DNA of 64,000 nucleotides from Squalus acanthias (taxonomy: Eukaryota), in NCBI GenBank assembly GCA_030390025.1, contig CM059430.1, forward strand, positions 62,000,001 through 62,064,000. The letters run 5' to 3'. The notes below the pieces were generated by a model, which searched no databases, was not told where the DNA came from, and saw nothing but the letters and a program-made list of their open reading frames with translations. The position numbers and the translations under genes were made by a program. Every line of letters begins with the position of its first letter. Position 1 is the first letter of the stretch. Shown one piece after another: positions 15,524 through 52,651 of this stretch.

Positions 15524-18202
15524 TCACGTCATGTATCGTGACATAAACCCAAGATCCCGATTGAGACCGTCTTCATGAGTGCGGAACTTGGCTATCAGTT
15601 TCTGCTCGATGATTTTGCGTTGTCGTGTGTTTCTAAGGTTGCCTTGGAGAACGCTTACCCACAGATCCGAGGCTGAATGTCCTTGACTGCTGAAGTGTTC
15701 CCCGACTGGGAGGTAACAATCCTGCCTGGCGATTGTTGCGCGATGCTCGTTCATACGTTGTCTCAGTGTCTGCATGGTCTCGCCGATGTACCATGCCGCG
15801 GTGCATTCTTTCCTGCAACGTATGAGGTAGACAACGTTGGCCGAGTCACATGAGTATGGACCATGTACCTGGTGGGTAGTGTCCTCACGTGTGATGGTGG
15901 TATCTGTGTTGATGATCTGGCATGTCTTGCAGAGTTTGCCATGGCAGGGTTGTGTGGTGTCGTGGTCGCTGTTATCCTGAAAGCTGGGTAATTTGCTGCG
16001 AACGATGGTACTTCTGAGGTTAGGCGGCTGTTTGAAGGCAAGTAGTGGAGGCGTGGGGATGGCCTTAGCGAGGTGTTTGTCGTCATCGATGACATGTTGA
16101 AGGCTGCGAAGAACATGGCATAGTTTCTCCGCTCCGGGGAAGTACTGGACGACGTAGGGTACCCTGTTGGTTGTGTCCCGTGTTTGCCTTCTGAGGAGGT
16201 CTATGCGATTTTTCGCTGTGGCCCGTCGGAACTGTCGATCGATGAGTCGAGCGTCATATCCCGTTCTTACGAGGGCGTTTTTCAGCGTCCGTAGGTGTCG
16301 ATCGCGTTCCTCCTCGTCTGAGCAGATCCTGTGTATTCGCAGGGCTTGTCCATAGGGGATGGCTTCTTTAACATGGTTAGGGTGGAAGCTGGAGAAGTGG
16401 AGCATCGTGAGGTTGTCCGTGGGCTTGCGGTAGAGTGAAGTGCTGAGGTGTCCGTCTTTGATGGAGATTCGTGTGTCCAGGAATGAGACCGATTCTGAGG
16501 AGTAGTCCATGGTGAGTTTGATGGTGGGATGGAACTTGTTTATGTTATCGTGTAGTCTTTTCAGTGATCCTTCACCATGGGTCCAAAGGAAGAAAATGTC
16601 GTCGATGTATCTGGTGTACAGCGTTGGCTGGAGGTCCTGTGCAGCGAAGAAGTCTTGCTCGAACTTGTGCATGAAGATGTTGGCGTATTGGGGTGCGAAT
16701 TTGGTCCCCATGGCTGTTCCGTGTGTTTGGGTAAAAAAATGGTTGTCGAAGGTGAAGACATTGTGGTCAAGGATGAAGCGGATGAGTTGTAGGATGGCGT
16801 CTGGAGATTGGCTGTTGTTGATGTTGAGTACTGAGGCTGTTGCAGCGATGCCGTCATCGTGGGGGATACTGGTGTAGAGTGCCGATACGTCCATCGTGGC
16901 AATGAGTGTTCCTGGTTCAACTGGTCCGTGGGTGCTGAGTTTCTGTAAGAAGTCTGTAGTGTCGCGACAGAAGCTGGGGGTTCCCTGTACGATGGGTTTC
17001 AGAATGCCCTCGACGTATCCAGAGAGGTTCTCACACAGGGTTCCATTGCCTGATACGATAGGACGTCCGGGTGTGTTGGCTTTGTGTATCCTTGGGAGGC
17101 AGTAGAAGTCTCCCACGCGGGGAGTACGTGGGATGAGAGCGCGTAGGATGTTTTGAAGTTCTGGATCGAAGGTCTTGATCAGTCTATTGAGTTGGCGGGT
17201 GTGTTCTTTGGTCGGATCTGCGGGTAGCTGTCTGTAGTGTTCCTGGTTGTCCAGTTGTCGGTATGCTTCTTTACAATAGTCCGTTCTGTTCTGTATGACG
17301 ATGGCTCCTCCTTTGTCCGCTGGTTTGATGACAATGTTGCGCTTGGTCTTGAGAGCGTGGATGGCGTTGCGTTGTGCTCGGGTGACATTCTGGACTGTCT
17401 TGTGAGTGCGGCTGATGAATCTGGCGTTGATGCATCTCCTGACAGCTTGAGCATACATGTCAAGCTTGGGGCAGCGACCCTCCGGAGGGGTCCAGTTTGA
17501 CTCTTTTTTCTTCGGTTGCTGCACTGCGAGTCCCTCTGTCTGCTGTTCTGGATCATTGATTGTCTCATTGGGTTTGTTGCTGACATCTTGGGATTTGTGG
17601 AAGTATTCCCAGAGCCTCATTCTCCTGATGAATTCCTCCGTGTCTGCCGCGAGACCGATGGGGTCCATTTTGGTGGTTTGGCAGAACTTGAGCCCTAGGG
17701 CGAGAACTTCGATTTCGTCTGGTTGAAGGGTATGGTCGGACAAGTTGACGATGGACTTCCCTGTGGTTGCAGCCGTGGTACCGGGGGAGGCTTGGTTGCT
17801 GCTGGTGGTGTTGCCGAGTTTCTCAAGCTTCCTGTTCTTGATGCGCATGTAGGCAGCGTAGTTCCGTTGCCTCGTCTGTTTGGTGGTGTCTCGTAACTGG
17901 TCTGCTGTGTCCTGAGCACAGGCTGAGAGCATGGACTCTATCTTGGTTTCGAGGTTGTGGCGTTTGCTGTAGAGCTGGTGTACGAGATGGTTGAGGAGTG
18001 TGCGAGAGGTACGACGGCAGAGTCTCTCAGCGTAGTCTGTGTTGTATGTCGACTTGAGTGGGTTCGTGATCTGTAGTCCTTTCGGGATCTTGTCTGCTTT
18101 CTTGCATCTCTGTAGATACTTGATGTCGGTGTCGCTATGCGCGATCTTCTTGGCGATTCTCTCCACTTTGAGCCGACAGTTTGTGGTGTCGATAGTGGTC
18201 AT
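15524..18202 (-). CDS. Penelope-like RT/GIY-YIG endonuclease polyprotein, intact, 892 aa from ATG 18202 (ORF track extends to a non-ATG start at 18274)
   Basis: KPADKGG, GRPIVS, DVSALYTSI, GTAMG..FAP.YANIFM, RYIDD, FLD; Cys-rich PCHGKLCKTC; GIY-YIG NVVYLIRC..WYIGET..LRQRMNEH; C-terminal GLNRD. Confidence 0.95.
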   Translation of the reverse strand: MTTIDTTNCRLKVERIAKKIAHSDTDIKYLQRCKKADKIPKGLQITNPLKSTYNTDYAERLCRRTSRTLLNHLVHQLYSKRHNLETKIESMLSACAQDTADQLRDTTKQTRQRNYAAYMRIKNRKLEKLGNTTSSNQASPGTTAATTGKSIVNLSDHTLQPDEIEVLALGLKFCQTTKMDPIGLAADTEEFIRRMRLWEYFHKSQDVSNKPNETINDPEQQTEGLAVQQPKKKESNWTPPEGRCPKLDMYAQAVRRCINARFISRTHKTVQNVTRAQRNAIHALKTKRNIVIKPADKGGAIVIQNRTDYCKEAYRQLDNQEHYRQLPADPTKEHTRQLNRLIKTFDPELQNILRALIPRTPRVGDFYCLPRIHKANTPGRPIVSGNGTLCENLSGYVEGILKPIVQGTPSFCRDTTDFLQKLSTHGPVEPGTLIATMDVSALYTSIPHDDGIAATASVLNINNSQSPDAILQLIRFILDHNVFTFDNHFFTQTHGTAMGTKFAPQYANIFMHKFEQDFFAAQDLQPTLYTRYIDDIFFLWTHGEGSLKRLHDNINKFHPTIKLTMDYSSESVSFLDTRISIKDGHLSTSLYRKPTDNLTMLHFSSFHPNHVKEAIPYGQALRIHRICSDEEERDRHLRTLKNALVRTGYDARLIDRQFRRATAKNRIDLLRRQTRDTTNRVPYVVQYFPGAEKLCHVLRSLQHVIDDDKHLAKAIPTPPLLAFKQPPNLRSTIVRSKLPSFQDNSDHDTTQPCHGKLCKTCQIINTDTTITREDTTHQVHGPYSCDSANVVYLIRCRKECTAAWYIGETMQTLRQRMNEHRATIARQDCYLPVGEHFSSQGHSASDLWVSVLQGNLRNTRQRKIIEQKLIAKFRTHEDGLNRDLGFMSRYMT

Positions 18203-18289
18203 GATGCGGAGATGCCGGTGTTGGACTGGGGTGGACAAAATTGAGAGGTCGCACAACACCAGGTTATAGTCCAACAGTTTTATTTGAAA

Positions 18290-18331: not shown

Positions 18332-18742
18332 AGTAAATTAGATACAGAATCGCCAAAGCATATATAGATAGAAAACAAAGCATGTGTACCTTACAATTGC
18401 AGACCACTAAATTAAATCATCCTGACTATCTGCCGAGGTGTGATAAACTTAATTACGTCAGCCAGGAAGGTACCACATCAAAGATACATACCATAGCAAG
18501 ATACAACTGAGACAATGAGGTGTAGTCGCAGGGGTTCTAACGTGTCAAAAGCTGCCGTCTGTATGTAAAACGAAAAGCTTTAAAAATTTTACTTTTTTAC
18601 TGGGAACATTTTTACTTTTTTACTGGGAATCACATCTGTGAACAAGCTAACGACGACTCGAGTCCGGATCACGTCATGTATCGTGACATAAACCCAAGAA
18701 CCCAAGATCACGGCTGCAACCACAGGGAAGTCCATCGTCAAC

Positions 18743-20962
18743 TTGTCCGACCATACCCTTCAACCAGACGAAATCGAAGTTCTCGCCCTAGGGCTCAAGT
18801 TCTGCCAAACCACCAAAATGGACCCCATCGGTCTCGCGGCAGACACGGAGGAATTCATCAGGAGAATGAGGCTCCGGGAATACTTCCACAAATCCCAAGA
18901 TGTCAGCAACAAACCCAATGAGACAATCAATGATCCAGAACAGCAGACAGAGGGACTCGCAGTGCAGCAACCGAAGAAAAAAGAGTCAAACTGGACCCCT
19001 CCGGAGGGTCGCTGCCCCAAGCTTGACATGTATGCTCAAGCTGTCAGGAGATGCATCAACGCCAGATTCATCAGCCGCACTCACAAGACAGTCCAGAATG
19101 TCACCCGAGCACAACGCAACGCCATCCACGCTCTCAAGATCAACCGCAACATTGTCATCAAACCAGCGGACAAAGGAGGAGCCATCGTCATACAGAACAG
19201 AACGGACTATTGTAAAGAAGCATACCGACAACTGGACAACCAGGAACACTACAGACAGCAACCCGCAGATCCGACCAAAGAACACACCCGCCAACTCAAT
19301 AGACTGATCAAGACCTTCGATCCAGACCTCCAAAACATCCTACGCGCTCTCATCCCACGTACTCCCCGCGTGGGAGACTTCTACTGCCTCCCAAAGATAC
19401 ACAAAGCCAACACACCCGGACGTCCTATCGTATCAGGCAATGGAACCCTGTGTGAGAACCTCTCTGGATACGTCGAGGGCATTCTGAACCCCATCGTACA
19501 GGGAACCCCCAGCTTCTGTCGCGACACTACAGACTTCTTACAGAAACTCAGCACCCACGGACCAGTTGAACCAGGAACACTCATTGCCACGATGGACGTA
19601 TCGGCACTCTACACCAGTATCCCCCACGATGACGGCATCGCTGCAACAGCCTCAGTACTCAACATCAACAACAGCCAATCTCCAGACGCCATCCTACAAC
19701 TCATCTGCTTCATCCTTGACCACAATGTCTTCACCTTCGACAACCATTTTTTTACCCAAACACACGGAACAGCCATGGGGACCAAATTCGCACCCCAATA
19801 CGCCAACATCTTCATGCACAAGTTCGAGCAAGACTTCTTCGCTGCACAGGACCTCCAGCCAACGCTGTACACCAGATACATCGACGACATTTTCTTCCTT
19901 TGGACCCATGGTGAAGGATCACTGAAAAGACTACACGATAACATAAACAAGTTCCATCCCACCATCAAACTCACCATGGACTACTCCTCAGAATCGGTCT
20001 CATTCCTGGACACACGAATCTCCATCAAAGACGGACACCTCAGCACTTCACTCTACCGCAAGCCCACGGACAACCTCACGATGCTCCACTTCTCCAGCTT
20101 CCACCCTAACCATGTTAAAGAAGCCATCCCCTATGGACAAGCCCTGCGAATACACAGGATCTGCTCAGACGAGGAGGAACGCGATGGACACCTACGGACG
20201 CTGAAAAACGCCCTCGTAAGAACGGGATATGACGCTCGACTCATCGATCGACAGTTCCAACGGGCCACAGCGAAAAATCGCATAGACCTCCTCAGAAGGC
20301 AAACACGGGACACAACCAACAGGGTACCCTACGTCGTCCAGTACTTCCCCGGAGCGGAGAAACTACGCCATGTTCTTCGCAGCCTTCAACATGTCATCGA
20401 TGACGACAAACACCTCGCTAAGGCCATCCCCACGCCTCCACTACTTGCCTTCAAACAGCCGCCTAACCTCAGAAGCACCATCGTTCGCAGCAAATTACCC
20501 AGCTTTCAGGATAACAGCGACCACGACACCACACAACCCTGCCATGGCAAACTCTGCAAGACATGCCAGATCATCAACACAGATACCACCATCACACGTG
20601 AGGACACTACCCACCAGGTACATGGTACATACTCATGTGACTCGGCCAACGTTGTCTACCTCATACGTTGCAGGAAAGAATGCACCGCGGAATGGTACAT
20701 CGGCGAGACCATGCAGACACTGAGACAACGTATGAACGAGCACCGCACAACAATCGCCAGGCAGGATTGTTACCTCCCAGTCGGGGAACACTTCAGCAGT
20801 CAAGGACATTCAGCCTTGGATCTGCTGGTAAGCGTTCTCCAAGGCAACCTTAGAAACACACGACAACGCAAAATCATCGAGCAGAAACTGATAGCCAAGT
20901 TCCGCACTCATGAAGACGGTCTCAATCGGGATCTTGGGTTTATGTCACGATACATGACGTGA
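18743..20962 (+). CDS. Inverted 5'-truncated copy of the Penelope A ORF (739 codons, still open)
   Basis: About 16 amino-acid differences from the minus-strand copy by manual comparison; lacks the native N-terminus and ATG; RT and GIY-YIG motifs intact. Confidence 0.88.
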   Translation: MSDHTLQPDEIEVLALGLKFCQTTKMDPIGLAADTEEFIRRMRLREYFHKSQDVSNKPNETINDPEQQTEGLAVQQPKKKESNWTPPEGRCPKLDMYAQAVRRCINARFISRTHKTVQNVTRAQRNAIHALKINRNIVIKPADKGGAIVIQNRTDYCKEAYRQLDNQEHYRQQPADPTKEHTRQLNRLIKTFDPDLQNILRALIPRTPRVGDFYCLPKIHKANTPGRPIVSGNGTLCENLSGYVEGILNPIVQGTPSFCRDTTDFLQKLSTHGPVEPGTLIATMDVSALYTSIPHDDGIAATASVLNINNSQSPDAILQLICFILDHNVFTFDNHFFTQTHGTAMGTKFAPQYANIFMHKFEQDFFAAQDLQPTLYTRYIDDIFFLWTHGEGSLKRLHDNINKFHPTIKLTMDYSSESVSFLDTRISIKDGHLSTSLYRKPTDNLTMLHFSSFHPNHVKEAIPYGQALRIHRICSDEEERDGHLRTLKNALVRTGYDARLIDRQFQRATAKNRIDLLRRQTRDTTNRVPYVVQYFPGAEKLRHVLRSLQHVIDDDKHLAKAIPTPPLLAFKQPPNLRSTIVRSKLPSFQDNSDHDTTQPCHGKLCKTCQIINTDTTITREDTTHQVHGTYSCDSANVVYLIRCRKECTAEWYIGETMQTLRQRMNEHRTTIARQDCYLPVGEHFSSQGHSALDLLVSVLQGNLRNTRQRKIIEQKLIAKFRTHEDGLNRDLGFMSRYMT

Positions 20963-29728: not shown

Positions 29729-30299
29729 ATTTTAAATAAATCTGTTGGACTATAACCTGGTGTTGTGCGACTTCTCATTTTTGTCCACCCCAGTCCAACG
29801 CCGGCATGACCACATTTAAAAAGTACTTGAATGTGCACTTGAGATGCTCTAAACTGCAGTACTACGGACCAAGAGCTGTGAAGTGGGATTAGGCTGGGTA
29901 GCTCTTTGTTGGACGGCATGTACATGATGGGCCGAAATGGCCTCCTTCCGTCATGTAACTTTCTACGATTCTATGATTCTATGATTTGTCCTGATAATGG
30001 TTGCAGAGAAATAAAAATGTCATGTGTTATTATATAAATTGACTTGCTTGAGAATTCATAAAGGATTAAAATAGTAATAACTGCCAATGCATTCTACAAT
30101 ACAATGCTAAAGTGGGCGAGGCCTCAGATGGGTGGTAATATTATAATTACATAACATGCAGATATGATAGTGCAGTACCATCAATATAAATCGGGATAAA
30201 ATGGCTTTCATAGCTAAAATTTTACCCACTATTTGATTCTGGCGTCTCTGTAAACGGCTTCTGTTACTCGTCTTTGGATGTTTGTCTGTAGCTCTGAAT

Positions 30300-33200
30300 G
30301 TTGATAGCACGTTTAACGCGGTGGTCACACCGCAGGTAAAGAGTTCCCTGGCAGAAAGTGAATGGGTGACCGCCAGACAGAGTAAAATACATCGGAAGGT
30401 AGTCCAGGAGTCTCCTGGGTCCGTCTCCCTCTCCAACAGATTTTCCGTTTTGGATACTGCTGGTGGAGATGGTTTCTCAGGGGACTGCAGCAAGAGCCAA
30501 GTCCGTGACAATACGAGTGGCTCAGCTGCACAGGAGGGGAGGAAAAAGAGTGGGAGAGCAATAGTGATAGGGGATTCTATCTTAAGGGGAACAGATAGAC
30601 GTTTCTGTGGCCACAGACGTGACTCCAGGATGGTACGTTGCCTCTCTGGTGCCAGGGTTAAGGATATCACTGAGTGGCTGCAGGATATCCTGACGGGGGA
30701 AGGTGAACAACCAGAGGTCCTGGTCCATATCGGCACCAACGACATTGGTAGAAAGAGGGACGAGGTCCTGCAAGCAGAATACAGGGAGCTAGAAAATAAA
30801 TTAAAAAGCAGGACCTCAAAGGTAGCAATCTCAGGATTACTCCCAGTGCCACGTGCTAGCAAGAGCAGAAATAAGAGAATAGACCAGATGAATGCATGGC
30901 TGGAGAGATGTTGTAGGAGGGAGAGATTTAATTTACTGAGACATTGGGATCGACTCTGGGGAAGGTGGGACCAGTACTTGCTGGACGTGTTACACCTCGG
31001 CATAACCGGGACCAATATCCTCGCAGAGGGGTTTGCTAGTGCTGTTGTTAAGGATTTAAACTCGTTTCTCAGGGGGCTGGGATCCCAAGTGTGGGCTCAG
31101 AACAGAGAGAATCAAAGCTGAAAGTGCAAGTTAGAAAAGTAGTCAGCAAAACTGGTAGGGAGCAGAAAAAAGGCGCACAGTAAAGGGGGTCAAAGTGCAG
31201 AAAAATATTACACAGGCAAAGTTGAAGGCACTTTATCTAAATGCACGTAGCATTCGAAACAACTTGGATGAATTACTGGCACTAATATAAGTAAATAGGT
31301 ATGATGTAATTGCCATTACAGAGACATGGTTGCAGGGTAACCAAAGCTGGGAGCTGAATGTTCCAGGGTACTCAATATTTAGGAAGGACAGACAAAAAGG
31401 AAAAGGAGGTGGCATAGCGCTGTTAATAAGGGATGAGATCGGTACGGTAGAGATAAAAGATCTTGGCTTGGCAGATCGTGATGTAGAACTGGAATCAGTT
31501 TGGGTGGAGCTAAGAAACAGCAAAGGGCGGAAAACATTGGTGAGAGTTGTGTATAGGCCACCAAACAGTAGTGGTAATGTAGGGCACAGTATCAATCAAG
31601 AGATTAGAAGTGCATATAACAAGGGCAATACGGTAATCATGGGGGACTTTCATCTACATATTGACTGGGCAATTCAAATTACCAATAATGGTGTGGAGGA
31701 CGATATTCTTGGAATGCATGTGAGATGGTTTCCTGGATCAGTATGTGGAGGAACCAAACAGGGAACAGGCTATTCTGGATCTGGTACTGTGTAACGAGAA
31801 AGGACTGATCAATAATCTTGTGGTAAAGGGGACTTCAGGGAAAAGTGACCACAATATGATTGAATTTTATATTAAGTTTGAGAGTGATGTAGTCCAATCT
31901 TAAACTAAGGTCTTCAATCTAAACAGAGGAAACTACAAGGGTATGAGCGACAAGTTGGCCATGGTAGATTGGGAGACTACACTAAAAGTTATGAAGTGGA
32001 CATATAATGGCTAACATTCAAGGAAATAATGCATAATTTGCAACAAATACATATTCTTCCAGGGCATAAAAACCCAAAAGGAAAAGTGATCTAACCATGG
32101 CTAACAAAAGAAATTAAAGCTAGTATTAACTCAAAGGAGCAAGCTTATAAAGTTGCCAGAAAAAGCGGCCAGCCTGAGGATTGGGATCTGTTTAGGAATC
32201 AGCAAAGGGGGATCAAGAAATTGATAAAGAAAGGGAACATGGAATATGAGCACAAATGAGCGAAAAATATAAAAACGGATAGTAAAAGCTTCTATAGGTA
32301 TGTGAAAAGGCAAAGACAGGCGAAGGTAAATGTATGTCCTTTACAGTCAGAGACGAGAGAATTTATAATGGGGAATGAGGAAATGGCTGAGAAATTAAAT
32401 ACTTTGTTTCTGTCTTCACGGAGGAAGACACAAAAAACACTCAGAAATACGAGAAAACCAAGGGTGTGGCGAGAATGAGGAACTTAAAGAAATTAGTATT
32501 AGTAAAAAAACAGTGTACGCAAAATTAATGGGACTAAAATTCGATAATTCTCATGGACCGGATGACCTACATCCTAGGGTTTTGAAAGAGGTGGCCATTG
32601 GCTTAGTGGACGCATTGTTTGTCATCTTCCAAAATTCTATAGATTCTGGAACGGTTCCTGCAGATTGGAGGATAGCAAATGTAACGCCGCTATTTAAGAA
32701 AGGAGGGAGAGAGAAAACGGGGAATCGCAGACCTGTTAGCCTCACATCAGTAGTTGGGAAAATGCTGGATCTATTATAAAGGATGCAATAACTGGGCACT
32801 TAGAAACTTATAGTAAGATTGGGCAGAGTCAACATGGATTTATGAAAGGGAAGACTTGTGTGACAAACCTGTTGGAGGTCTTTGAGGATGTAACTAGTGC
32901 AGTAGACAAAGGGGAACCAGTAGATATGGTTTATTTGGATTTTCAGAAGGCCTTCAATAAGGTCCCACACAAGAGTTTGGTGAGCAAAATTAGGGCTCAT
33001 GGAATTGGGGGTAATATACTAGCATGGATTGAGAATTGGTTAACAGACACAAAACAAAGTGCAGGGATAAACGGGTCTTTTTCAGGATGGCAGGCTGTGA
33101 CTAGTGGGGTAGCGCAAGGATCGGTGCTTGGGCACCAGCTATTCACAATCTATATCAATGATTTGGATGAGAGGACTAAATGTAACATTTCCAAATTTGC

Positions 33201-39614: not shown

Positions 39615-39819
39615 CATTAATTTATGAAAATGTTACAGTTTTGGAAAATCAGCTAGGGCCGTGTGGCGGGTAGATGTGTTCCCAAGCCGATAGCGCACGT
39701 TTCCCACCATAGCCCGACCTGATTTTATAGCCACTCACTTAACTAAAGTTACTTTAACAACTATTTCCATTTTTTCATTACAACTTACTGTTTGAAGAGG
39801 AAGCCTGTGTGAGAGAAAG

Positions 39820-40968
39820 ATGCCCTTTCACAATCAATTCCTGTTCCTCTGTGGGATTGTGTATCAGAGAATTTTTGAATACAGACAACTAATCAGACGG
39901 AGGAACCAAGCCCGTCTCCTCCAGAGAAGGAGAAACTACTACCCACCAAATAGAGTGTACAGGGAGAGGCTGTCATTTGAGATGCTGTCGGAGGAGTTGT
40001 GTGTGAGGAGGCTGCGCTTCAGTAAAGAGTCAATTGGCCGAATCTGTGAGATGTTAAAGGAGGACCTTCAAACACGCTCGAAGAGCCGCTATGCATTGTC
40101 AGTGAGCATGAAGGTAACCACAGCACTGAACTTCTTTGCAAGTGGGACTTTTCAGGCAAGCACCGGTGACATTTCCAACATATCGAAGAATGCTGCGAGG
40201 GCCTGCATTCACCAGGTCACAGAAGCCATTTTCCGTAGGGCTTCTGAGTTCATTAACTATGACTTGTCCGCTCGCCATCAAAAGGAGATGGCGCTTGCAT
40301 TTCATAACATTGCTGGATTCCCCAAAGTGATTGGGGCCGTCGATGGAACCCATGTAGCATTGAAGGCACCAGGGGTTGCACCTGTGACATTTATCAACAG
40401 GAAGGGGTTTCATTCATTGAATGTCCAGATTGTCTGTGATGCGCATCTCAGGATCTTAAATGTGAATGCAAGTAACCGTGGAAGTAATCATGACTCCTTC
40501 GTCCTCCGTAACTCTGACTTATATGGCGCCCTCAACGCATTGCCTCCAGGATCCGCATGGATATTGGGCGACAAGGGCTACCCGCTAAGACCATGGCTGA
40601 TGACTCCCTACCGCAAGACCAATAATGAGGCTCAGGAGAGATACAACCAGGCACACGTGTCCACACGGCAAGTGGTGGAGAGGACAATCGGAGTTCTGAA
40701 ATCACGCTTCCGGTGCCTGGACAGGTCAGGGGGGACCTTGCAGTATTCTCCTCTGAAAGTGGCAAAGATTATGGTGGTCTGTTGTGCTTTGCATAACTTT
40801 GCCCTGCGGGAAGGACTGACCCTTAACGCTGCAGATGAACTACCTGCAGAAATGGAGGACGTGGACAATGCCAATGTGCCTGTGGGAAGGCATGATGGGG
40901 AAGAGCCAGCTGCTGCTCAAAGTAAGGCTGTTCGGGAGCAGCTGGTAGCCAACACCTTCACGAGGTAG
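39820..40968 (+). CDS. Harbinger DDE transposase (HARBI1-family nuclease), intact single exon, 382 aa
   Basis: FPKVIGAVDGTHV (D), NRKGFHSLNVQIVCD, GSNHDS, ILGDKGYP (D), RQVVERTIGVLKSRFRCL (E), CCALHN; AATAAA at 41028-41033. Confidence 0.95.
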   Translation: MPFHNQFLFLCGIVYQRIFEYRQLIRRRNQARLLQRRRNYYPPNRVYRERLSFEMLSEELCVRRLRFSKESIGRICEMLKEDLQTRSKSRYALSVSMKVTTALNFFASGTFQASTGDISNISKNAARACIHQVTEAIFRRASEFINYDLSARHQKEMALAFHNIAGFPKVIGAVDGTHVALKAPGVAPVTFINRKGFHSLNVQIVCDAHLRILNVNASNRGSNHDSFVLRNSDLYGALNALPPGSAWILGDKGYPLRPWLMTPYRKTNNEAQERYNQAHVSTRQVVERTIGVLKSRFRCLDRSGGTLQYSPLKVAKIMVVCCALHNFALREGLTLNAADELPAEMEDVDNANVPVGRHDGEEPAAAQSKAVREQLVANTFTR

Positions 40969-41519: not shown

Positions 41520-43085
41520 CTACTGTCTCTTGCGCTTTCCCGCTCCCCGTGACCGTTGCCCGGTGCTGCGACTTGATACGGCCCTGCTTGCCGTCTCTTG
41601 CCCTTCAGCAATTGCCTCCTGACAGGGTTGTTGCTGCTGCTGCTGCTGCAAGGCAATGTTTGCTAGCATCATCGTAGGCGGAGCAGGTGGCTCTTGGACC
41701 TGCACTGATTCTGCGCTGGGAGCAGGTAAGGTTGGTTCTGAGGGAGTCACAGTAATGGCAGCAGAAATTATTTGCATGAGTCCAACAAGAGACTAATTTA
41801 TTTGCCTAAGATCCACTCCCAAATCGGGTTTCTGCAACAGTGCGACAAGAGACTCATTTATTTTCTTAAGCTCCATTCCCTGATTCTGAGCTATGATATG
41901 ATCTTTCATTTCATTAAATGACATGCACAGACATTCCACTCCCTGCTTGACAGAGGCAAGACAATCAACTTATTTCTCTGTAAGAGAAGACATCGATTGA
42001 CTCAAGCCTTCAAGATGGTGGATGTGACCCTGCATCTCCTGTTCTGCTGCATGTATATCTGTGTCTCCCACATGCACTGTAGTATCAAGCTGCTGTCTGT
42101 TTGGCACAGAGCCAGAGTGGCCAGGAGTTGGAGAGGAAGATGGAGAGGACCTCTCCTGCAACCCAGATTCCAGAACCTCCATGTTCAATTCAGCAACAAT
42201 TTCCTCTTGCTGCTCCTCCACCACCACCTCACTCGCATCTCTCACTGGCTCGACATGCCCTTCACCAATGACCTCTTCGGCTGCAGACTCAACGCACTGC
42301 TCATCCCGTGACTGAGAAGTCTGCTGTACACCTATGTAAAGGAAACAGTAAAGATTAGCAAAGGTAAAGCATGATGTGCCACGTCACAGAAGCTGATATT
42401 CAGCACACATCACCTGTGTCTGTTCGTTCAGTTTCAAAGGGACATCCGCGAAGATATCCAAACATATGCTCGAGCCTTTCCTCATGTTCGGTTAAAGCCC
42501 TTAACGTGACAACACCACCGCCTGTCAGTGAACGTTCTCTGGCGTTGTGAGCAGTTTTACTCTAAAATTGAAAATGAAAATCTGAAATGTAAGGGTTTTT
42601 ACACCAAAACTGCATTGGCACTCACACAGTTAACTCAGTAAGCAACTCACAGCATTGCAATCAAGATGACATTAGCATTTTATGAGACTTGCCTGGCTAC
42701 AAAAGCCATAAAAATTTATGGGAGCATCTTGAGACTTCAGTTAACTCAGCTTAGCAAACAAACACTGTTTCAAAGTTTTTCATTTTAAATGTAAAGACAT
42801 TTTAACATTGACTTTTGTTATAACTATACAAACCTTGAGCGTTCGAAATAAATCGCTGAATTTTTTGCGACATTGCTCAGCTGTACGAGGAATGGTCGAG
42901 GTTGCGGTCACACTTTGAGCAACCTCTTTCCACGCTGCCATTTGGCCTTTTCGAGGCGGTTTGGACTTCTCAGTTCCAATTATCCGCAATCGCTTCGCTT
43001 CTACCTCGTCAAGAAGTGTGCAGAGATCATCATCACTGAAATTCTGTGTTCTTTTGATAAATTGGATATTGCTGATAGCAGCCAT
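41520..43085 (-). pseudogene. Harbinger Myb/SANT-like DNA-binding protein gene, 3 exons (43085-42834, 42561-42414, 42331-41520), with two in-frame nonsense codons in exon 3
   Basis: Exon 1 NFSDDD..LLDEV..AWKEVA..RTAEQCRKKFSDL; exon 2 RSLTGGG..LTEHEE; GT-AG introns with compatible phases (0, 1); stops at 41970-41972 and 41793-41795; AATAAA on minus strand at 41068-41073. Confidence 0.85.
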
Positions 43086-44554
43086 TTCCGTTTGCTGATT
43101 ATAAACAGTAAAATCAATGAAAAAAATGATTTCTTGGCGTTTAAAACTATTTAAATTACTTTAAATCTCTTTGCAAATGTTTAAAATTACTCAAATTAAA
43201 CTAAAAATCTTTAAAAGTTTTCAAAACATGCATTTAAATCCAACTTACTGTAACTGCCACGTCGAACACTGATAGAATTGTGTCTTCAGCTGCTGTGAAA
43301 CTCCATTCAATTGAGAAAAAAATTGGGGGCGTGGCCTATGGAAAAGAGACCTTAATGGGCGTGTCTTCACTCCACATCGCACGCGATGCAACGCGCACGC
43401 TGCGCTGCAGGGCAGTGTGACGTCATACGCTGCCCTGCACTCAAGCACAAAAAAGACCAAGTTCCTCCGAGGAGAAATGGAAACGGCAGACGCGGTATGT
43501 ATTACCGCGCCGGCTCCTTACCCCCGCGGGAACAGAGAGAGATCAATTTTTGGGCCAATGTTTATAGTGGTGGATGGGCTGCCAATGGAGCGGGCTGCAT
43601 TGTCCTGGATGGTGTCAAGCTTCTTGAGTGCTGTTGGAACTGCACTCATCCAGGCAAGAGAAGAGTATTCCATCACACTCCTGACTTGTGCCTTGTAGAT
43701 GGTGGAAAGGCTGCGGGGATCAGGAGGTGAGACACTCGTCGCAGAACACAAAGCCTCTGACCTGCTCTTGTAGCCACAGAATTTATGTGGCTGGTCCAGT
43801 TAAGTTTCTTTTCAATGGTGACCCCCAGGATGTTGATGGTGTTTCGGTGATAGTAATGTCGTTGAATGTCAAAGGGCTGGCTAGACTGTCGCTTGTTGTC
43901 ATTTCCTGGCACTTGTGTGGCATGAATGTTACGTACCACTTATCAGCTCAAGCCTGAATGTCATCCAGGCCGTGCTGCATTCGGGCATGTACTGCTTCAT
44001 TATCTAAGAAGTTGTGAATGGAACTGAACACTGTGCAACATCAGTGAACATCCCCACTTCTGACCTTATGATGGCGGGACGGTCATTGAAGAAATAGCTG
44101 AAGATGTTTGGGTTTAGGAGACTGCCCTGAGGAATTGCTGCAGCGATGTAATGGGGCTGAGATGATTGACCTCCAACAACCACAACTATCTACCTTTGTG
44201 CTAGGTATGACTCCAGCCAGTGGGGAGTTTTTCCCCTCACTCCCATTAACTTTAATTTTACTAGTTCTCCTTGATGCCACATTCGGTCAAATGCTGCCTT
44301 GATATCAAGGGCTGTCACTCTCACCTCACCTCTGTAATTCAGCTCTTTTGTCCATGTTTGGACGAAGGCTGTAATGAGGTCTGGAGCCAAGTGGTCCTGG
44401 CGGAACCCAAACTGAGCATCGGTGAGCAGGTTATTGGTGAGTAAGTGCTGCTTGATCGCACAGTCGACGACACCTTCCATCACTTTGCTGATGATTGAAA
44501 GTGGACTGATGGGGCGGTAATTGGCTGCATTGAATTTGACCTGCTTTTTGTGGA

Positions 44555-47634: not shown

Positions 47635-47809
47635 AGAAAATTCAACTTCACAAATGAAGTTGAATTTCTGAACCCGCAGTTACATGATGTCAAACGTCAT
47701 TGCGACGTAACTCATAGAAAAGTAACCGCAAACCATTCTTAACAGTTGCAAACTCGCAGTTACTGCAAAGAGTCATCAGTTGAATCTATTGCTCAGAATA
47801 TCGGCGAGT
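47635..47809 (+). promoter_or_regulatory. Putative proximal promoter of the Ig-superfamily receptor
   Basis: CRE-like TGATGTCA (47685-47692), ACGTCA and GACGTAA; RUNX-type AACCGCA (47724-47730); 13-bp inverted repeat 47638-47667; no clear TATA box. Confidence 0.4.
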
Positions 47810-47852
47810 ATGCTTTTCCTGTGCCTGACTCTCCGGGGGATTATTTACACAG
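47810..47852 (+). CDS. Exon 1: signal peptide (MLFLCLTLRGIIYT)
   Basis: ATG with purine at -3, hydrophobic stretch, phase-1 donor ag|gtacc. Confidence 0.7.
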
Positions 47853-50800
47853 GTACCTCTTTATTCATTGTCCGAGGTAGTTTTCACATTAATTTAGTGA
47901 ACTGTAATTCCTCTATCTAGATTATTTCTCTTTTGCATCGCCATGACGTGTTTAATACAATTAACCTGTACTTGACTATATTTTCTGACAGCAGCGGACC
48001 AGATTTCGTTCAGTGTAACTCAAGCGCCCAAACAAGCGATTGTATCCAGAGGAGGGAACATCACCTTCTACTGCATATTCCCAATCTCGCAGGACCATTC
48101 CTGGGTAAGAGTCTATTGGTGGAAACAGGGTGAGAATGAATACCTGCGCACAAGCGCCGACAACAGAAAACGGTTTGGCCTGACAAAAGCGAGCGGATTC
48201 TTTCAGTTGCTGAGCGCGACTTTCGAAGACTCTGGAGTCTATCAGTGTGCCGTGCTCCGTCAAGGAATAATTCGAGGAAATGGAAGCGGATCACATCTAA
48301 TTGTGCATGGTAAGTGTGAAACACAGGAGAGCGGGACAGTCGAAAATCTATCGAGCATATAAAACGGGGATGTTTTGTGATTGTTTTATTGCACCGTTTT
48401 GGGCATTATAAACATGTCTATTAATAAATCTCGCACTAAGTTAAGTTGTATGTACGGGTGCTCTGTTTAGAACTGCTAATTAGATATTCAATGTCACAAA
48501 CAGAGTATTGCAAAATGTATCAATATTAACCAATTGGACTATAACTCCACAATTTACACACCTGCAGTCTGATAGCGGAAGTTCGGAACAAATTCCGTGC
48601 ATATAACTGACTGAAAATCGTTTATATTCATGCGTCTCTCCCAACATATACACGGCTCTTAGCCCATTACTGATGCTCTGTCTTCCCCCATCGCTGTCTT
48701 TGCGGTTTAAAATTCCTGAAATTAATTCTCATATCATGTTAGCGTCAGGGATTCTAAAGCCAGGGTGAAACTAACTGTTGATCAACGGCTTCACTCAACA
48801 AACTGGAGCTTGGAACACACAACGTTGCCACCTGACTAACCTCCAATAAATAAAACAATACCGAGGAACTTGTTACTAAAACCTCCTGAGGTTCAAACAA
48901 CATACTTTCTGTCACCAATTGTTATGCTTCGGCTGTGAAATTTGTGCGATACTGACTTAGCACCCGTTTAATCATCAACAATGTGCAGATTACTCGTCAC
49001 TGTCTATCTGTTCCTAACACGGAGGGACTCAGCGTGCCAACTTCACCCGAGAATTACTTACTTAATTATTTGGACTACGAAAAGCAAACATTGATTCGCA
49101 AATCGTTGCGACTTGTCTGCTGAGTAACTCTAAGTCTTGGACTTGATAGCGCGGGTAAAATTGAACAGATGCGGGTGTCTATGAGAGATACGGATCAGGT
49201 GTTTGCAGATGATGTGCGTAACATTAAAAGGACTGGAGGCCGCGCTTTCTAATGGTGCTATTATATTAAAATGAACGGAAGGTAAATCAGAATCATATTT
49301 AATCTCCCAATGATGCCCAGTAAAGCGATTGTGTTCATTCTCTGTTCCACAGCGGCCCCAACCCCACTGAAGATTGTCTCCACTGAAGGGAATTCATCTG
49401 CTTCGCTGACTCTTCTGTGTAAAACCGCTGCGTTTTTTCCTGAGAATTTCACCCTCATTTGGTATAAAAATGGCGTCGAAACTGCATTAGGAATCCATAC
49501 CAGGAAAAAGCAGAACACGGAGGGACTGTATGAAGTTTCCAGCTCTTTGGTTGAGACAAAGCCTGTCCCGAGCGACGCCAATTATACCTGTTTGGTATCT
49601 CATATCTCCCTTCAGACTCCAGCTGTTGTCAGCCATGTTGTTTCTAAATACAACCAAGGTACGATGCTAAGAGTCCAAAAAGGAGAGATAGCTGCATTCA
49701 TTTTTAAAAGAGATATATCGGACATTTTATACATATTAATAATCATGAATAAAGTCCACAGAAATCTCATGGGAAATATCAACGAAAGCATTAAGTTCAT
49801 GTTGTAATGTACAGTAGAATTGAACCCGATGTGTTGTAAAACCAGTTTCTCTCGCCCGCCACACACATATTCTCAGACAAACCTCATTTGCTTTCAAATT
49901 CCTTTATTTGATATGTACAACTATAAACAGAAGTTTCTCATTTCCATCCGATTATATTTCCTGCTTATAATGAATAATGTTTCAGTTTCTTTTGTTTCAA
50001 TTTTAAGATTGTTTTATTCTTTATCATTGCTTGCTCTTCTTGCACCAAGACTGTTACCAAGAGCTGCAGTCATGTTGTTTGTAATCGGCCGGCTCCCAAT
50101 GCAGTTCCCTGTCCTGACACGCATTTCGGCTACTTCTAGCGCAGTGGTCTGAAATTGACCCCCTGACCAAGTTTTGCCGCTCTGCTGTCCATATGAGAGC
50201 GGGTTTAATTGGAATCTGCCTCATAAACCTCTAAAACTGTGCCCGCAACCTGGCAAAAGTACAACCGGTTCGATGCGTCATATTGTGAAAAACTCTTTGC
50301 CCCGTAAGACAATAATCAATGAACCATCTCCCGTTGATATCCTTTACTATTCAGTGACATTCTTACTTTAATAAACACAGTTGAGATAATTGAAAGAGGA
50401 TTTTTAACCGATTGCTGCATTCCAGAATTTTGAGCGGGCAACGAAAAAACGCTTGTGACAAAATTACCTCCAATTTCCTCAAACTATATGTTAATAATTA
50501 AGAAAGGTCAAGAACAAGAACACGTCTTTTGGTCATGGGAAATTGATTCCTCTCATTATCTAACTCTCCTAAAACTTTGCTGTGAGATCCCTAAACCGGT
50601 AGTGCGAGGCGCAGATTAAACCAGAATGTCTCATCCATCCGATGAATAAGTTACTTCAAATATTTTACCGCGGGGTTACTGAAAACATTGCCATAGTCAA
50701 CCAATAAACTATCTTGAGGCCTATTTTTAGCCAACGCCCGTCATAACTTAATGTTCCTATTAATCTTGCAGGTAGTGGCGACAATTCACTTTACTTCTGG

Positions 50801-52651
50801 GCTCCTGGATGTGCGGTGGGTGCATTGGCGTTTCTAGTGCTAATGATCTTAATTGGGAGGCGGTGCCGACTGCAGAATAATGAAAGTAAGTTCTAATGTA
50901 AGCTCTTGAATTTAGTTCAAAAGCCCACGGTTAGTGGCAGTCTCCGGGTAACACGGGGGAAGGAGAACTTGATTAGGAATTAAAGTTGAAAACCCTGTTA
51001 TCTGTTTTCAGGGAGCGCCGAATGTTCCAAATGTATTTGAAAACGCAGGAATGCTCACAGAATCGTAATAAAATTGAGATAATTATCTGGATATATGCAA
51101 TAAAAATGCCCCCTTTGCGGCACGATAAATGACACGTACCCTGACACACAATCACATTCCAACCCATTCTGTTGTGGATGCGCAGCGAGTTTGAGTGAAA
51201 GAGTGTGAGGCTCCGGCAGTGCAATGGTTGCACACATAAGAACATAAGAAACAACAGCAGGAGTAGGCCATACAGCGCTCGAGCCTGCTCCGCCTTGCAA
51301 TATGATCATGTCTGATCTTCAACCTGATCACCACGTTCCCACCCTATCCCCATATCCCTTGATTCACTTAGTGTCCGAAAAGATTCCGTTAGTTTCCGAA
51401 AACTATCGATACAATGCACCATTGCTGATCACTACAAGGGCTATGATTTCAAACACTCGGCATAATCCGGAATTAGAAATCATGTTCTGCTTTGTTCTGA
51501 CTCTGGAAATGTCTTTGCAATCTCTGACATGGAAACTGAGTAAATATTTCAATCTTTCAATATCATTAAATTTCATTCATTTCCAGGTAAAGAAGAATGT
51601 GTAACGGGACCGAACCGCGGTGAAGAGCAGGTAGGTTGATTCATTCATCCCGGCAGACGGTTAAAATGGCAAGAAAGATTGCTATAATGGAAAGATTATA
51701 TCATAGTCACGACAGAACAGTTTACCTCTATTTACTGAAAGTATTTAACCGGTCTTAGTGAGTGATTCAAATCGTGGTTAGAAATATACTTGGCACCCGG
51801 TGCGTTGCTGGTAAAAATTGCTAAATGGCAGAGAAGAAAACTGCTTGTTTCCGTTGAAAATGCACCTAGGTAATAAATGTTTATACAATTATCTAATCTT
51901 TGGATTTGAAAAAAAAATTACGTTCTAAAGCTGCCGCTCATTTAAACATTTCTGTAACACTGTGCTGTAGTGTGAACATTGACATGTTTAAATATTATTT
52001 ATAGTGATCACAGTTCCTTAATATTCGTACCTATGTAAATAAATCTTAATTAGGGTTTGTGCACTTGATCTCTAGCCCAGTTCTATCTGGTCAATGTTTG
52101 ATAAGCGACACGTAAACTGTTGAAGACAATGAATTAGCCACAAAACCAATTTTCTTTCTGACCCATGCAGGGAGCAGCGGCTGACTTCATGCATTATGCT
52201 GCATTAGATTTGAGCAGAGCCAGGAAAACTCCAAGAGGTAAACGTGAAGAGGAGAAAACCGTGTACGCTCAGGTAGGACTGAGTAACAGATCAAAGAAAC
52301 ATAGATCACCGGTGTTACATCAACATTCATGCGATAGCGGAGGGCTAATGTTTGTGTTGAATTTGACCGTGTGTTGTATCTAAGGCTATCTGCGTGACCT
52401 TCTGATGACTTCTTTGAGCCGCAGTCCACAAAATTTAGAAAACGACCAATTAACAATATTTCCAAACATTGGCTTCACAGACCGGAAAATGGACAGGCCG
52501 TGACAAGCTGACATACGCGACTATAGCATTGACTGGCTCAGGGAAAACGGGGAAATGCAAAAATAATGAAAGGACAGAGTATGCCCAGCTGCGGTCAAAA
52601 AAACAAAAAGGAGTAACAGAGGCTGTCTACACAGAAGTAAGAATCAATTAG
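47810..52651 (+). CDS. Inhibitory Ig-superfamily receptor, V(J)-C1-TM-ITIM/ITSM (SIRP/NKp30-like), 7 exons, 365 aa
   Basis: Exons 47810-47852, 47992-48309, 49353-49658, 50772-50885, 51587-51630, 52171-52272, 52481-52651; all GT-AG introns, phases 1,1,1,1,0,0; 1098 nt open to TAG; AATAAA at 52946-52951. Confidence 0.9.
47992..48309 (+). CDS. Exon 2: V-set Ig domain with germline J-like G strand
   Basis: SVTQAP..GGNITFYC..VYWWK..EDSGVYQCAV..GNGSGSHLIVH; NAGNAG acceptor; donor g|gtaagt; absent from the ORF track. Confidence 0.93.
49353..49658 (+). CDS. Exon 3: C1-set Ig domain
   Basis: LTLLCKTAAFFPENFTLIWYKNG..GLYEVSSSL..YTCLVSHISL within ORF 49310-49807; phase 1-1. Confidence 0.93.
50772..50885 (+). 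CDS. Exon 4: transmembrane segment
   Basis: LYFWAPGCAVGALAFLVLMILIG followed by RRCR stop-transfer; cag| acceptor and |gtaagt donor. Confidence 0.88.
51236..51380 (-). mobile_element. CR1-type 3' tail fragment in intron 4
   Basis: ataagaacataagaa..gcaggagtaggcc..tcgagcctgctccgcc is the reverse complement of the CR1 3' ends at ~7140-7220 and ~34030-34125. Confidence 0.75.
51587..51630 (+). CDS. Exon 5: short cytoplasmic exon (KEECVTGPNRGEEQ)
   Basis: Polypyrimidine tract + ccag|, cag|gtagg donor; converts phase 1 to phase 0 as the next exon requires. Confidence 0.78.
52171..52272 (+). CDS. Exon 6: cytoplasmic, MHYAAL and TVYAQ
   Basis: Within ORF 52165-52383; gcag| acceptor and cag|gtagg donor. 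Confidence 0.82.
52481..52651 (+). CDS. Exon 7: terminal cytoplasmic exon, LTYATI, TEYAQL, AVYTEV
   Basis: Within ORF 52469-52651; acag| acceptor, phase 0; TAG stop. Confidence 0.85.
   Translation, partial: TGKWTGRDKLTYATIALTGSGKTGKCKNNERTEYAQLRSKKQKGVTEAVYTEVRIN

Follow-up and report, generated by a model that had tools for sequence, protein, structure and literature searches.

A clustered family of non-rearranging V–C1 receptor genes in cartilaginous fishes with predicted inhibitory and activating members

The DNA stretch analyzed here (the window) comprises 64,000 nucleotides of Squalus acanthias (assembly GCA_030390025.1, contig CM059430.1, C6 in what follows, positions 62,000,001 to 62,064,000) and contains on its plus strand, at 47810–52651, a gene for a predicted membrane receptor with one V and one C1 immunoglobulin (Ig) domain. 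Splicing by coordinates gave seven exons, 1,098 nt coding for 365 residues and a stop codon. All six introns are GT–AG introns, in phases 1, 1, 1, 1, 0 and 0 at the predicted junctions. The product is a type I protein composed of a V domain, a C1 domain, an uncharged transmembrane (TM) segment and a tail with tyrosines, which bears out the intact chain of 365 residues that an initial annotation, made from the sequence of the window alone, had put forward.

Exon 1 (47810–47852) carries the start codon, encodes the greater part of the signal peptide and ends at a phase-1 intron, so that the leader is split; it agrees with the N-terminus of Heptranchias perlo models. The V domain is encoded by exon 2 alone (47992–48309). 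It is compact, with its cysteines at Cys42 and Cys100 and an N-glycan site at Asn111, and scored 34.5 bits against the Pfam V-set model (cut-off 26). Exon 3 (49353–49658) encodes the C1-set domain (Cys143–Cys200, with no spare cysteine), which scored 38.6 bits against a cut-off of 21, and the assignment of both domains was thereby confirmed.

The G strand, which corresponds to a J segment in position, sits within the V exon. Recombination signal sequences were absent from the whole window on both strands (heptamer with at most one mismatch, nonamer with at most two, spacers of 11–13 and 22–24), in agreement with the non-rearranging character proposed for the gene. The J-like strand described in the initial annotation was only partly recovered: the GxG motif is present in the V exon, the F/W-G-x-G of true J segments is not.

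Exon 4 (50772–50885) encodes the stalk and the TM helix, which carries no charge, as had been proposed, includes Cys236 and a GxxxG motif, and is followed by a basic stop-transfer stretch. A cytoplasmic linker of 44 nt (exon 5, 51587–51630) leads to exon 6 (52171–52272), with Y284 and Y307, and to exon 7 (52481–52651), with Y321, Y343, Y359 and the stop codon. Five tail tyrosines had been counted before, and three stand in clean motifs: Y321 in an immunoreceptor tyrosine-based inhibitory motif (ITIM), Y343, 22 residues further on, in a motif like the immunoreceptor tyrosine-based switch motif (ITSM), and Y359. Y284 belongs to an imperfect ITIM, and Y307 is not in a consensus motif because its +3 hydrophobic residue is gone after splicing. 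By sequence, Y321/Y343 together with Y359 form the SIRPα-like inhibitory tail that had been suggested for a V–C1 receptor of a cartilaginous fish.

The protein is 72.6% identical to H. perlo XP_067853517.1 over 365 positions, collinear over the junctions and with short gaps only. Identity is 75.6% to XP_067853772.1 of the same species, over the full length, and 45.2% to a Callorhinchus model, both again collinear. These alignments exceed chance by far; the matched records are gene predictions too.

The gene does not stand alone as a relic but belongs to a cluster of more than 100 sister genes. With 150 of 167 candidates scored, its V exon matched 128 places in the same genome, of which 123 are on C6, and its C1 exon at least 150, mostly on C6 (the best 150 of 509 candidates). 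When 118 V and 129 C1 places on C6 were compared, second fragments of split matches having been dropped, 114 of the 118 V places had a C1 exon at most 15 kb downstream, and five had more than one C1 within that distance. The resulting cluster of about 116 V–C1 loci extends from 57.5 to 76.9 Mb in five groups, located at 57.5 Mb (one locus), 61.2–62.8 Mb (39 loci), 67.4–68.2 Mb (13), 72.5–75.8 Mb (59) and 76.8–76.9 Mb (4). The 116 V loci were examined on 10 kb each, or 20 kb for four of them. By exon models, 79 V exons and 85 C1 exons are open, and 66 of the 116 loci have both; these counts are rough and are lower bounds.

Two observations concern single members. The minus strand of the window carries at 30232–30330 an orphan 3′ end of the last tail exon of another member, 74% identical to H. 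perlo residues 352–374 and adjoining a retroelement open reading frame (ORF). A locus at 61.25 Mb on C6 (L023) belongs, together with two further sequences (P0081 and P0085), to a more conserved branch present in sharks and rays, whose long basic tail is devoid of an ITIM.

A TM exon was identified in 94 of the 116 loci and assigned to the class of the nearest hand-picked seed exon: 57 are uncharged and 37 belong to four charged classes, in all of which an Arg lies near the outer TM end. The remaining 22 loci yielded no TM exon. Paralogues with a charged TM segment, predicted in the initial annotation, were therefore found in number. Two or more tyrosine motifs accompany 29 of the 57 uncharged TM segments and none of the 37 Arg segments (Fisher p=2e-8). 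In one charged class (class C), Asp or Glu follows 17 residues after the Arg in 14 of 17 cases. An FcRγ-type TM exon is present in the genome, and Arg near the outer TM end marks FcRγ-coupled receptors (PMC2413239). Most Arg TM segments of the family lack the full NxxR motif.

The two closest TM classes comprise 25 loci. For 17 of these the V exon had its nearest neighbour in the other class (about 12 expected at random, none under whole-gene duplication alone), whereas the TM exon had it there for none; in three pairs across the classes the V exons reach at least 98.9% identity. The family thus consists of separate clustered genes with similar ectodomains and, by sequence, with inhibitory-type and activating-type members, features that belong to the definition of paired receptors (PMC3716694).

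A twin of the gene, located on C6 at 61.92 Mb, 123 kb away on the opposite strand, encodes an identical V protein. The V exons differ in 2 of 318 bases (99.4% identity), both silently, and the C1 exons in 5 of 306 (98.4%), whereas 47 of 459 bases differ just upstream (p=2e-9 against the V exon) and beyond position 50,312 of the window identity falls to 66–77%. In V, the difference from the remaining seven close paralogues amounts to 7–12%. The TM exon of the twin, 70% identical, is of the Arg class, and its tail is frameshifted and stops ahead of the ITIMs. The contrast between V exon and upstream sequence and the drop past 50,312 make recent gene conversion over V–C1, with a presumptive tract at 47959–50312 (plus strand) ending in the C1–TM intron, the simplest reading. 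The same conversion pattern has been reported for CD300A/C (PMC12447643).

We consider it likely that the gene is an intact-frame member of a non-rearranging V–C1 cluster and that, of two paired receptors, it represents the inhibitory one. It would be carried by a leukocyte, probably of the myeloid or NK-like (natural killer) kind. The compact V domain would bind a self ligand on the cell surface, and Src-family kinases would phosphorylate Y321 and Y343. Phosphorylated ITIM/ITSM pairs recruit SHP-1/SHP-2; here the two phosphotyrosines would engage the tandem SH2 domains of these phosphatases, and activation would be damped. For the twin and other siblings with an Arg TM segment, this ligand or its imitation by a pathogen would be the target and FcRγ the signalling route, and recombination ending in the C1–TM intron would keep the ectodomain alike in activating and inhibitory versions.

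Several observations weigh against this interpretation. By the exon models 50 of the 116 loci are broken or unresolved, and this copy has itself lost its first start codon. The in-frame codon at 47798–47800 (plus strand) is ATA instead of ATG; two close paralogues have their start codon there, four codons upstream, which also fits the longer H. perlo N-terminus, and the signal peptide would thus be about four residues shorter. One end of the twin's TM segment is polar and contains Asn, and decay could be set off by the premature stop; the twin may therefore be a pseudogene or a decoy. The TM classes depend on hand-picked seeds, a few of the segments counted as uncharged have an Arg immediately ahead of the helix, and 28 of the 57 uncharged loci have fewer than two tyrosine motifs, tails past 10 kb being missed. 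Pooled over eight close paralogues, dN/dS was 0.91 in V and 0.61 in C1, and the loops did not exceed the framework; ligand-driven positive selection is therefore not shown. A cysteine in 38 of 54 uncharged TM segments and a GxxxG motif in 24 of 54 would allow membrane dimers.

The lost ATG and the share of broken loci could also mean that the family is real and this copy a young pseudogene or unexpressed. We regard this as quite unlikely: none of the seven exons is interrupted, all splice sites are canonical, a second in-frame ATG with an A at −3 is left, and both V-exon differences from the twin are silent. Three runs labelled as the same species (contigs) left the exons uncovered, matched mainly an intronic repeat and were uninformative on expression. 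This high-copy short repeat, at 51234–51381 in intron 4 and with three more copies in the window, is nearly the sole part covered by those runs.

The V domain of the family is derived: it is shortened and has Asn at the position of the J-segment Phe/Trp. The spacing between its cysteines is 54–59 in 77 of 79 intact V exons; four SIRP-type V domains have a spacing of 60–66. GxG occurs in 75 of the 79 exons, N-G-T/S-G in 52 and F/W-G-x-G in one. A glycan in place of the J-segment Phe/Trp would disfavour V–V pairing of the Ig or T-cell receptor (TCR) type, and the ectodomain is probably, judging from these motifs, not paired as Ig or TCR V domains are. A homodimer prediction for the V–C1 ectodomain of H. 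perlo gave a score of 0.01, which makes no call either way.

An AlphaFold2 model of the V domain (predicted local distance difference test, pLDDT, 90.9) has no C′ or C″ strand, and neither has the H. perlo model. The top folds matching it in the VIA ranking, tied within 1 Z unit, include the first Ig domain of NCAM2 (Z 14.2, root mean square deviation 1.8, 93 residues aligned), a skate VNAR (14.1, 2.0, 97), CD79b (13.8, 1.9, 92) and NKp30 (13.2, 2.5, 100). Foldseek was in accord. SIRPα was outside the best 50 VIA matches, yet in the Foldseek list, and absence from a list is not exclusion. A PDB search with the V profile returned mostly multi-domain I-set proteins on top. VNAR and CD79b share with the shark domain the compact V without C′ and C″; the likeness is one of fold only, at 20–27% identity, and VNAR rearranges.

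A profile of 61 family proteins retrieved 58 proteins, of which 55 came from sharks, rays and Callorhinchus, one species name being incomplete. Among the best 7,996 candidates scored, the E values of the family reach 1.6e-31 and are followed by a gap to 1.3e-11. Where the contig was recorded, nearly all matches of a species share one contig, and the pair of ITIM-like and ITSM-like motifs recurs in homologues from Callorhinchus to rays. The homologues bear the names SHPS-1-like, SIRPβ1-like, tapasin-related, CD276, B7-H6-like and Ig light chain-like in their source, a mixture that points to automatic naming and supplies no family name. The suggestion that the family may be uncharacterized was upheld within the literature searched, which did not extend to most subscription immunology journals or to the supplementary gene tables of PMC10751288 and PMC12227049; apparently, this is a large and undescribed paired-receptor family of cartilaginous fishes.

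An exhaustive search of 50% representatives found SIRP-like proteins only at E values of about 1e-16 to 1e-23, and ten proteins were examined, four from chondrichthyans and single ones from coelacanth, lungfish, viper, turtle, skink and jay. The coelacanth protein (Latimeria XP_064425669.1) has a V–C1–TM layout with a lysine in the TM segment, resembles the family in its G strand and is a candidate bony-vertebrate relative. The viper (KAM3829136.1) and turtle (XP_053904980.1) proteins contain several short V domains with a cysteine spacing of 52–63; their G strands are similar as well, and their tails bear tyrosines.

Domain trees were built with IQ-TREE from about 100 columns, with 59 rows for V and 56 for C1, 24 of them from the family in each case. 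The trees do not include TCR C, C1 domains of the major histocompatibility complex (MHC), β2m or PRARP; the outgroup labels from the same genome are motif-based, and the groups submitted to the approximately unbiased (AU) test were chosen after the trees were seen. The family forms a single starred clade in the V tree (96/96) and in the C1 tree (97/94), in both outside the Ig, UrIg-like and NCR3-like domains. In the V tree SIRP V domains group loosely with antigen-receptor V domains (93/82), and the viper and turtle proteins have no resolved position. The nearest neighbour in the C1 tree is the coelacanth V–C1 protein, on a long, unstarred branch (94/78).

It is possible, although we do not favour it, that cartilaginous fishes have in this family an orthologue or sister group of the tetrapod SIRPs, to which a second C1 domain and DAP12 coupling were added later, the cluster having moved to another chromosome. 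Both families are type I, clustered and paired, with an N-terminal single-exon V domain followed by C1; the inhibitory members share ITIM/switch pairs 22–24 residues apart, of which bird SIRPα has two at 24 residues, and many homologues bear the automatic RefSeq names SHPS-1-like or SIRPβ1-like. SIRPα clusters are the nearest in the ESM Atlas (0.97), and SIRPα is the fourth PDB match of the family profile. The AU test left a grouping with SIRP unrejected for V (p=0.25) and for C1 (p=0.38 and 0.25), and a search of the genome with bird SIRPα found no separate SIRP gene among 65 weak matches (best E 2e-6). A search with a CD47 profile gave no matches, its control being silent too.

Against an orthologue or sister relation, neither best tree joins the two families, and the V domain of the shark family is the shorter, as seen in its cysteine spacing. 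SIRPβ couples to DAP12 through a TM lysine. The putative activating members of the shark family carry an Arg-type TM segment, in difference from the DAP12 coupling of SIRPβ (PMC12975943); the family has one C1 domain, whereas SIRPs have two, three Ig domains in all (PMC3716694), and it numbers more than 100 loci. No shared synteny was found. The SEP-domain and syntaphilin matches (four each) are on contigs C8 and C11, with none on C6, and these genes (NSFL1C and SNPH) are the neighbours of human SIRP at 20p13. In its predicted working the family resembles SIRPα/SIRPβ, but it departs from the SIRPs in domain count and in synteny.

The initial annotation had further placed the gene close to the proposed antigen-receptor ancestor that preceded RAG, and had proposed a check of synteny with MHC paralogons. 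Descent of the family, as a side branch that survived, from the pre-RAG VJ–C1 gene behind Ig and TCR appears to us very improbable. Its single-exon V domain with GxG, its split leader and its V–C1 layout would fit, and a two-domain VJ–C1 precursor has been postulated (PMC12227049, Fig. 2 legend). Foldseek matched the two-domain model to light chains, UrIg2 was the top PDB match for the C1 exon by summed score, and a grouping of the family C1 with that of the Ig light chain (IgL) was unrejected (p=0.13). Conversely, an exclusive clade of the family V with rearranging V was rejected (p=0.004) and was borderline when other single-exon VJ domains were included (p=0.056), the Ig and UrIg-like C1 clade (97/95) leaves the family out, and the J-type motif is almost wholly missing from its V exons.

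The linkage evidence does not favour a pre-RAG origin either. On C6 none of 50 MHC class I matches was found, unplaced contigs limiting this test, and none of 11 PBX matches. None of the top-scoring C1-set or V-set matches is on C6, many such genes being on unplaced contigs. FOXC2, in a cluster of three Fox genes at 11 Mb, and AGTR2, at 89.6 Mb, are both on C6, and in human these two genes are on 16q and Xq; an FTO match is on an unplaced contig. With its own clade in both trees, a derived V domain and no MHC class I or PBX marker on C6, the closeness to a pre-RAG ancestor is not supported. A C1 cluster on contig C13 was considered as MHC and ruled out: V exons are present and it reads as IgL.

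No bZIP, cadherin, kinase, G-protein-coupled receptor, homeodomain or forkhead gene lies at 54–89 Mb on C6 among the matches listed, and Pfam recognized no host gene among 60 ORFs taken from the 176 unmasked ones of seven 10-kb samples of the cluster flanks. Long ORFs occur in many of the frames of two flank samples between gene groups, at 67.31 and 72.35 Mb, a pattern suggestive of tandem repeats or satellite DNA. A C1 exon which we take to be B7-H6/tapasin-like is located on C6 at 33817791–33818093, some 24 Mb away from the cluster.

UrIg and UrIg2, the published ancestor candidates, have linkage evidence (PMC12227049) of a kind that was not found for the shark V–C1 family. They resemble this family in being cartilaginous-fish genes with a single-exon VJ, a split leader, C1 domains and no recombination signal sequence; unlike it, UrIg has three and UrIg2 at least nine C1 domains, and their products are disulfide-linked homodimers whose genes are linked to MHC or to Ig/TCR complexes (PMC12227049). 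The shark family has a single C1, which is outside their clade, and ends in ITIMs or in an Arg TM segment. In the C1 tree two exon sets of this genome, at 132.1 Mb on contig C3 and on contig C3243, pair domain by domain, and the C3 locus occurs twice, in opposite orientation. The two sets are as we would expect for UrIg- and UrIg2-like genes.

PRARP and the tetrapod VJC1 genes (Fu 2019; Ohta 2019) have a similar non-rearranging VJ–C1 layout; they were compared by description only (PMC10751288).

That the family is a chimeric lineage of independent origin, in which an NKp30 (NCR3)-related V domain acquired a C1 domain of the B7-H6/tapasin group, we find unlikely. NCR3 has a single V domain and is not known to have a C1. 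Its single-exon V with a GxG G strand is similar, NKp30 is among the tied best folds, and a grouping of the family V with NCR3-like V was unrejected (p=0.29). B7-H6 was the top VIA match of the two-domain model (Z 16.1), and the C1 tree puts the family beside two B7-H6/tapasin-like domains, without support (21/80). The fold scores are, however, tied over many Ig domains, and the NCR3-like V exons of this genome are longer, form a clade of their own (99/93) and are located on another contig (C26).

CD300A/C, LILR and Xenopus XFL receptors differ from the shark family in domains that are V-only or of C2 type. Like the family, they comprise inhibitory and charged-TM members whose ectodomains are kept alike by gene conversion (PMC12447643), and they have an Arg near the outer TM end as in FcRγ-coupled receptors (PMC2413239).

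Elsewhere in the window mobile elements were noted. Two long, near-identical reverse-transcriptase ORFs in opposite orientation, at 15527–18289 (minus strand) and 18692–20959 (plus strand), resemble what we take to be a pair of Penelope-like elements. An ORF of 390 codons at 39796–40965 (plus strand) faces short ORFs at 41973–43160 (minus strand); presumably they are a Harbinger/PIF transposase and its Myb/SANT partner.

A bolder, tentative and less probable reading of the family would be this: about 100 germline two-domain V–C1 on/off receptors with compact, VNAR-like V domains in sharks, rays and chimaeras would be the deep sister of the tetrapod SIRPs, would have kept the proposed pre-RAG layout and would serve these fishes in self-recognition, as a missing-self system. 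If true, the SIRP lineage would be as old as the jawed vertebrates themselves. One paper describes the origin of SIRPs as unknown (PMC9652883), and a recent one places them with Tetrapoda (PMC13262535); a paired V–C1 cluster found across chondrichthyans offers a direct test of that origin, through its domains in trees and its synteny. UrIg2 is not displaced by it as the candidate for the gene invaded by RAG. The gene and its twin form a matched pair with one ligand-binding domain and two predicted outputs, a ready experimental system, and the cluster is a strong candidate for the large, fast-evolving on/off receptor family of cartilaginous fishes, comparable to KIR, LILR, NITR and XFL elsewhere.

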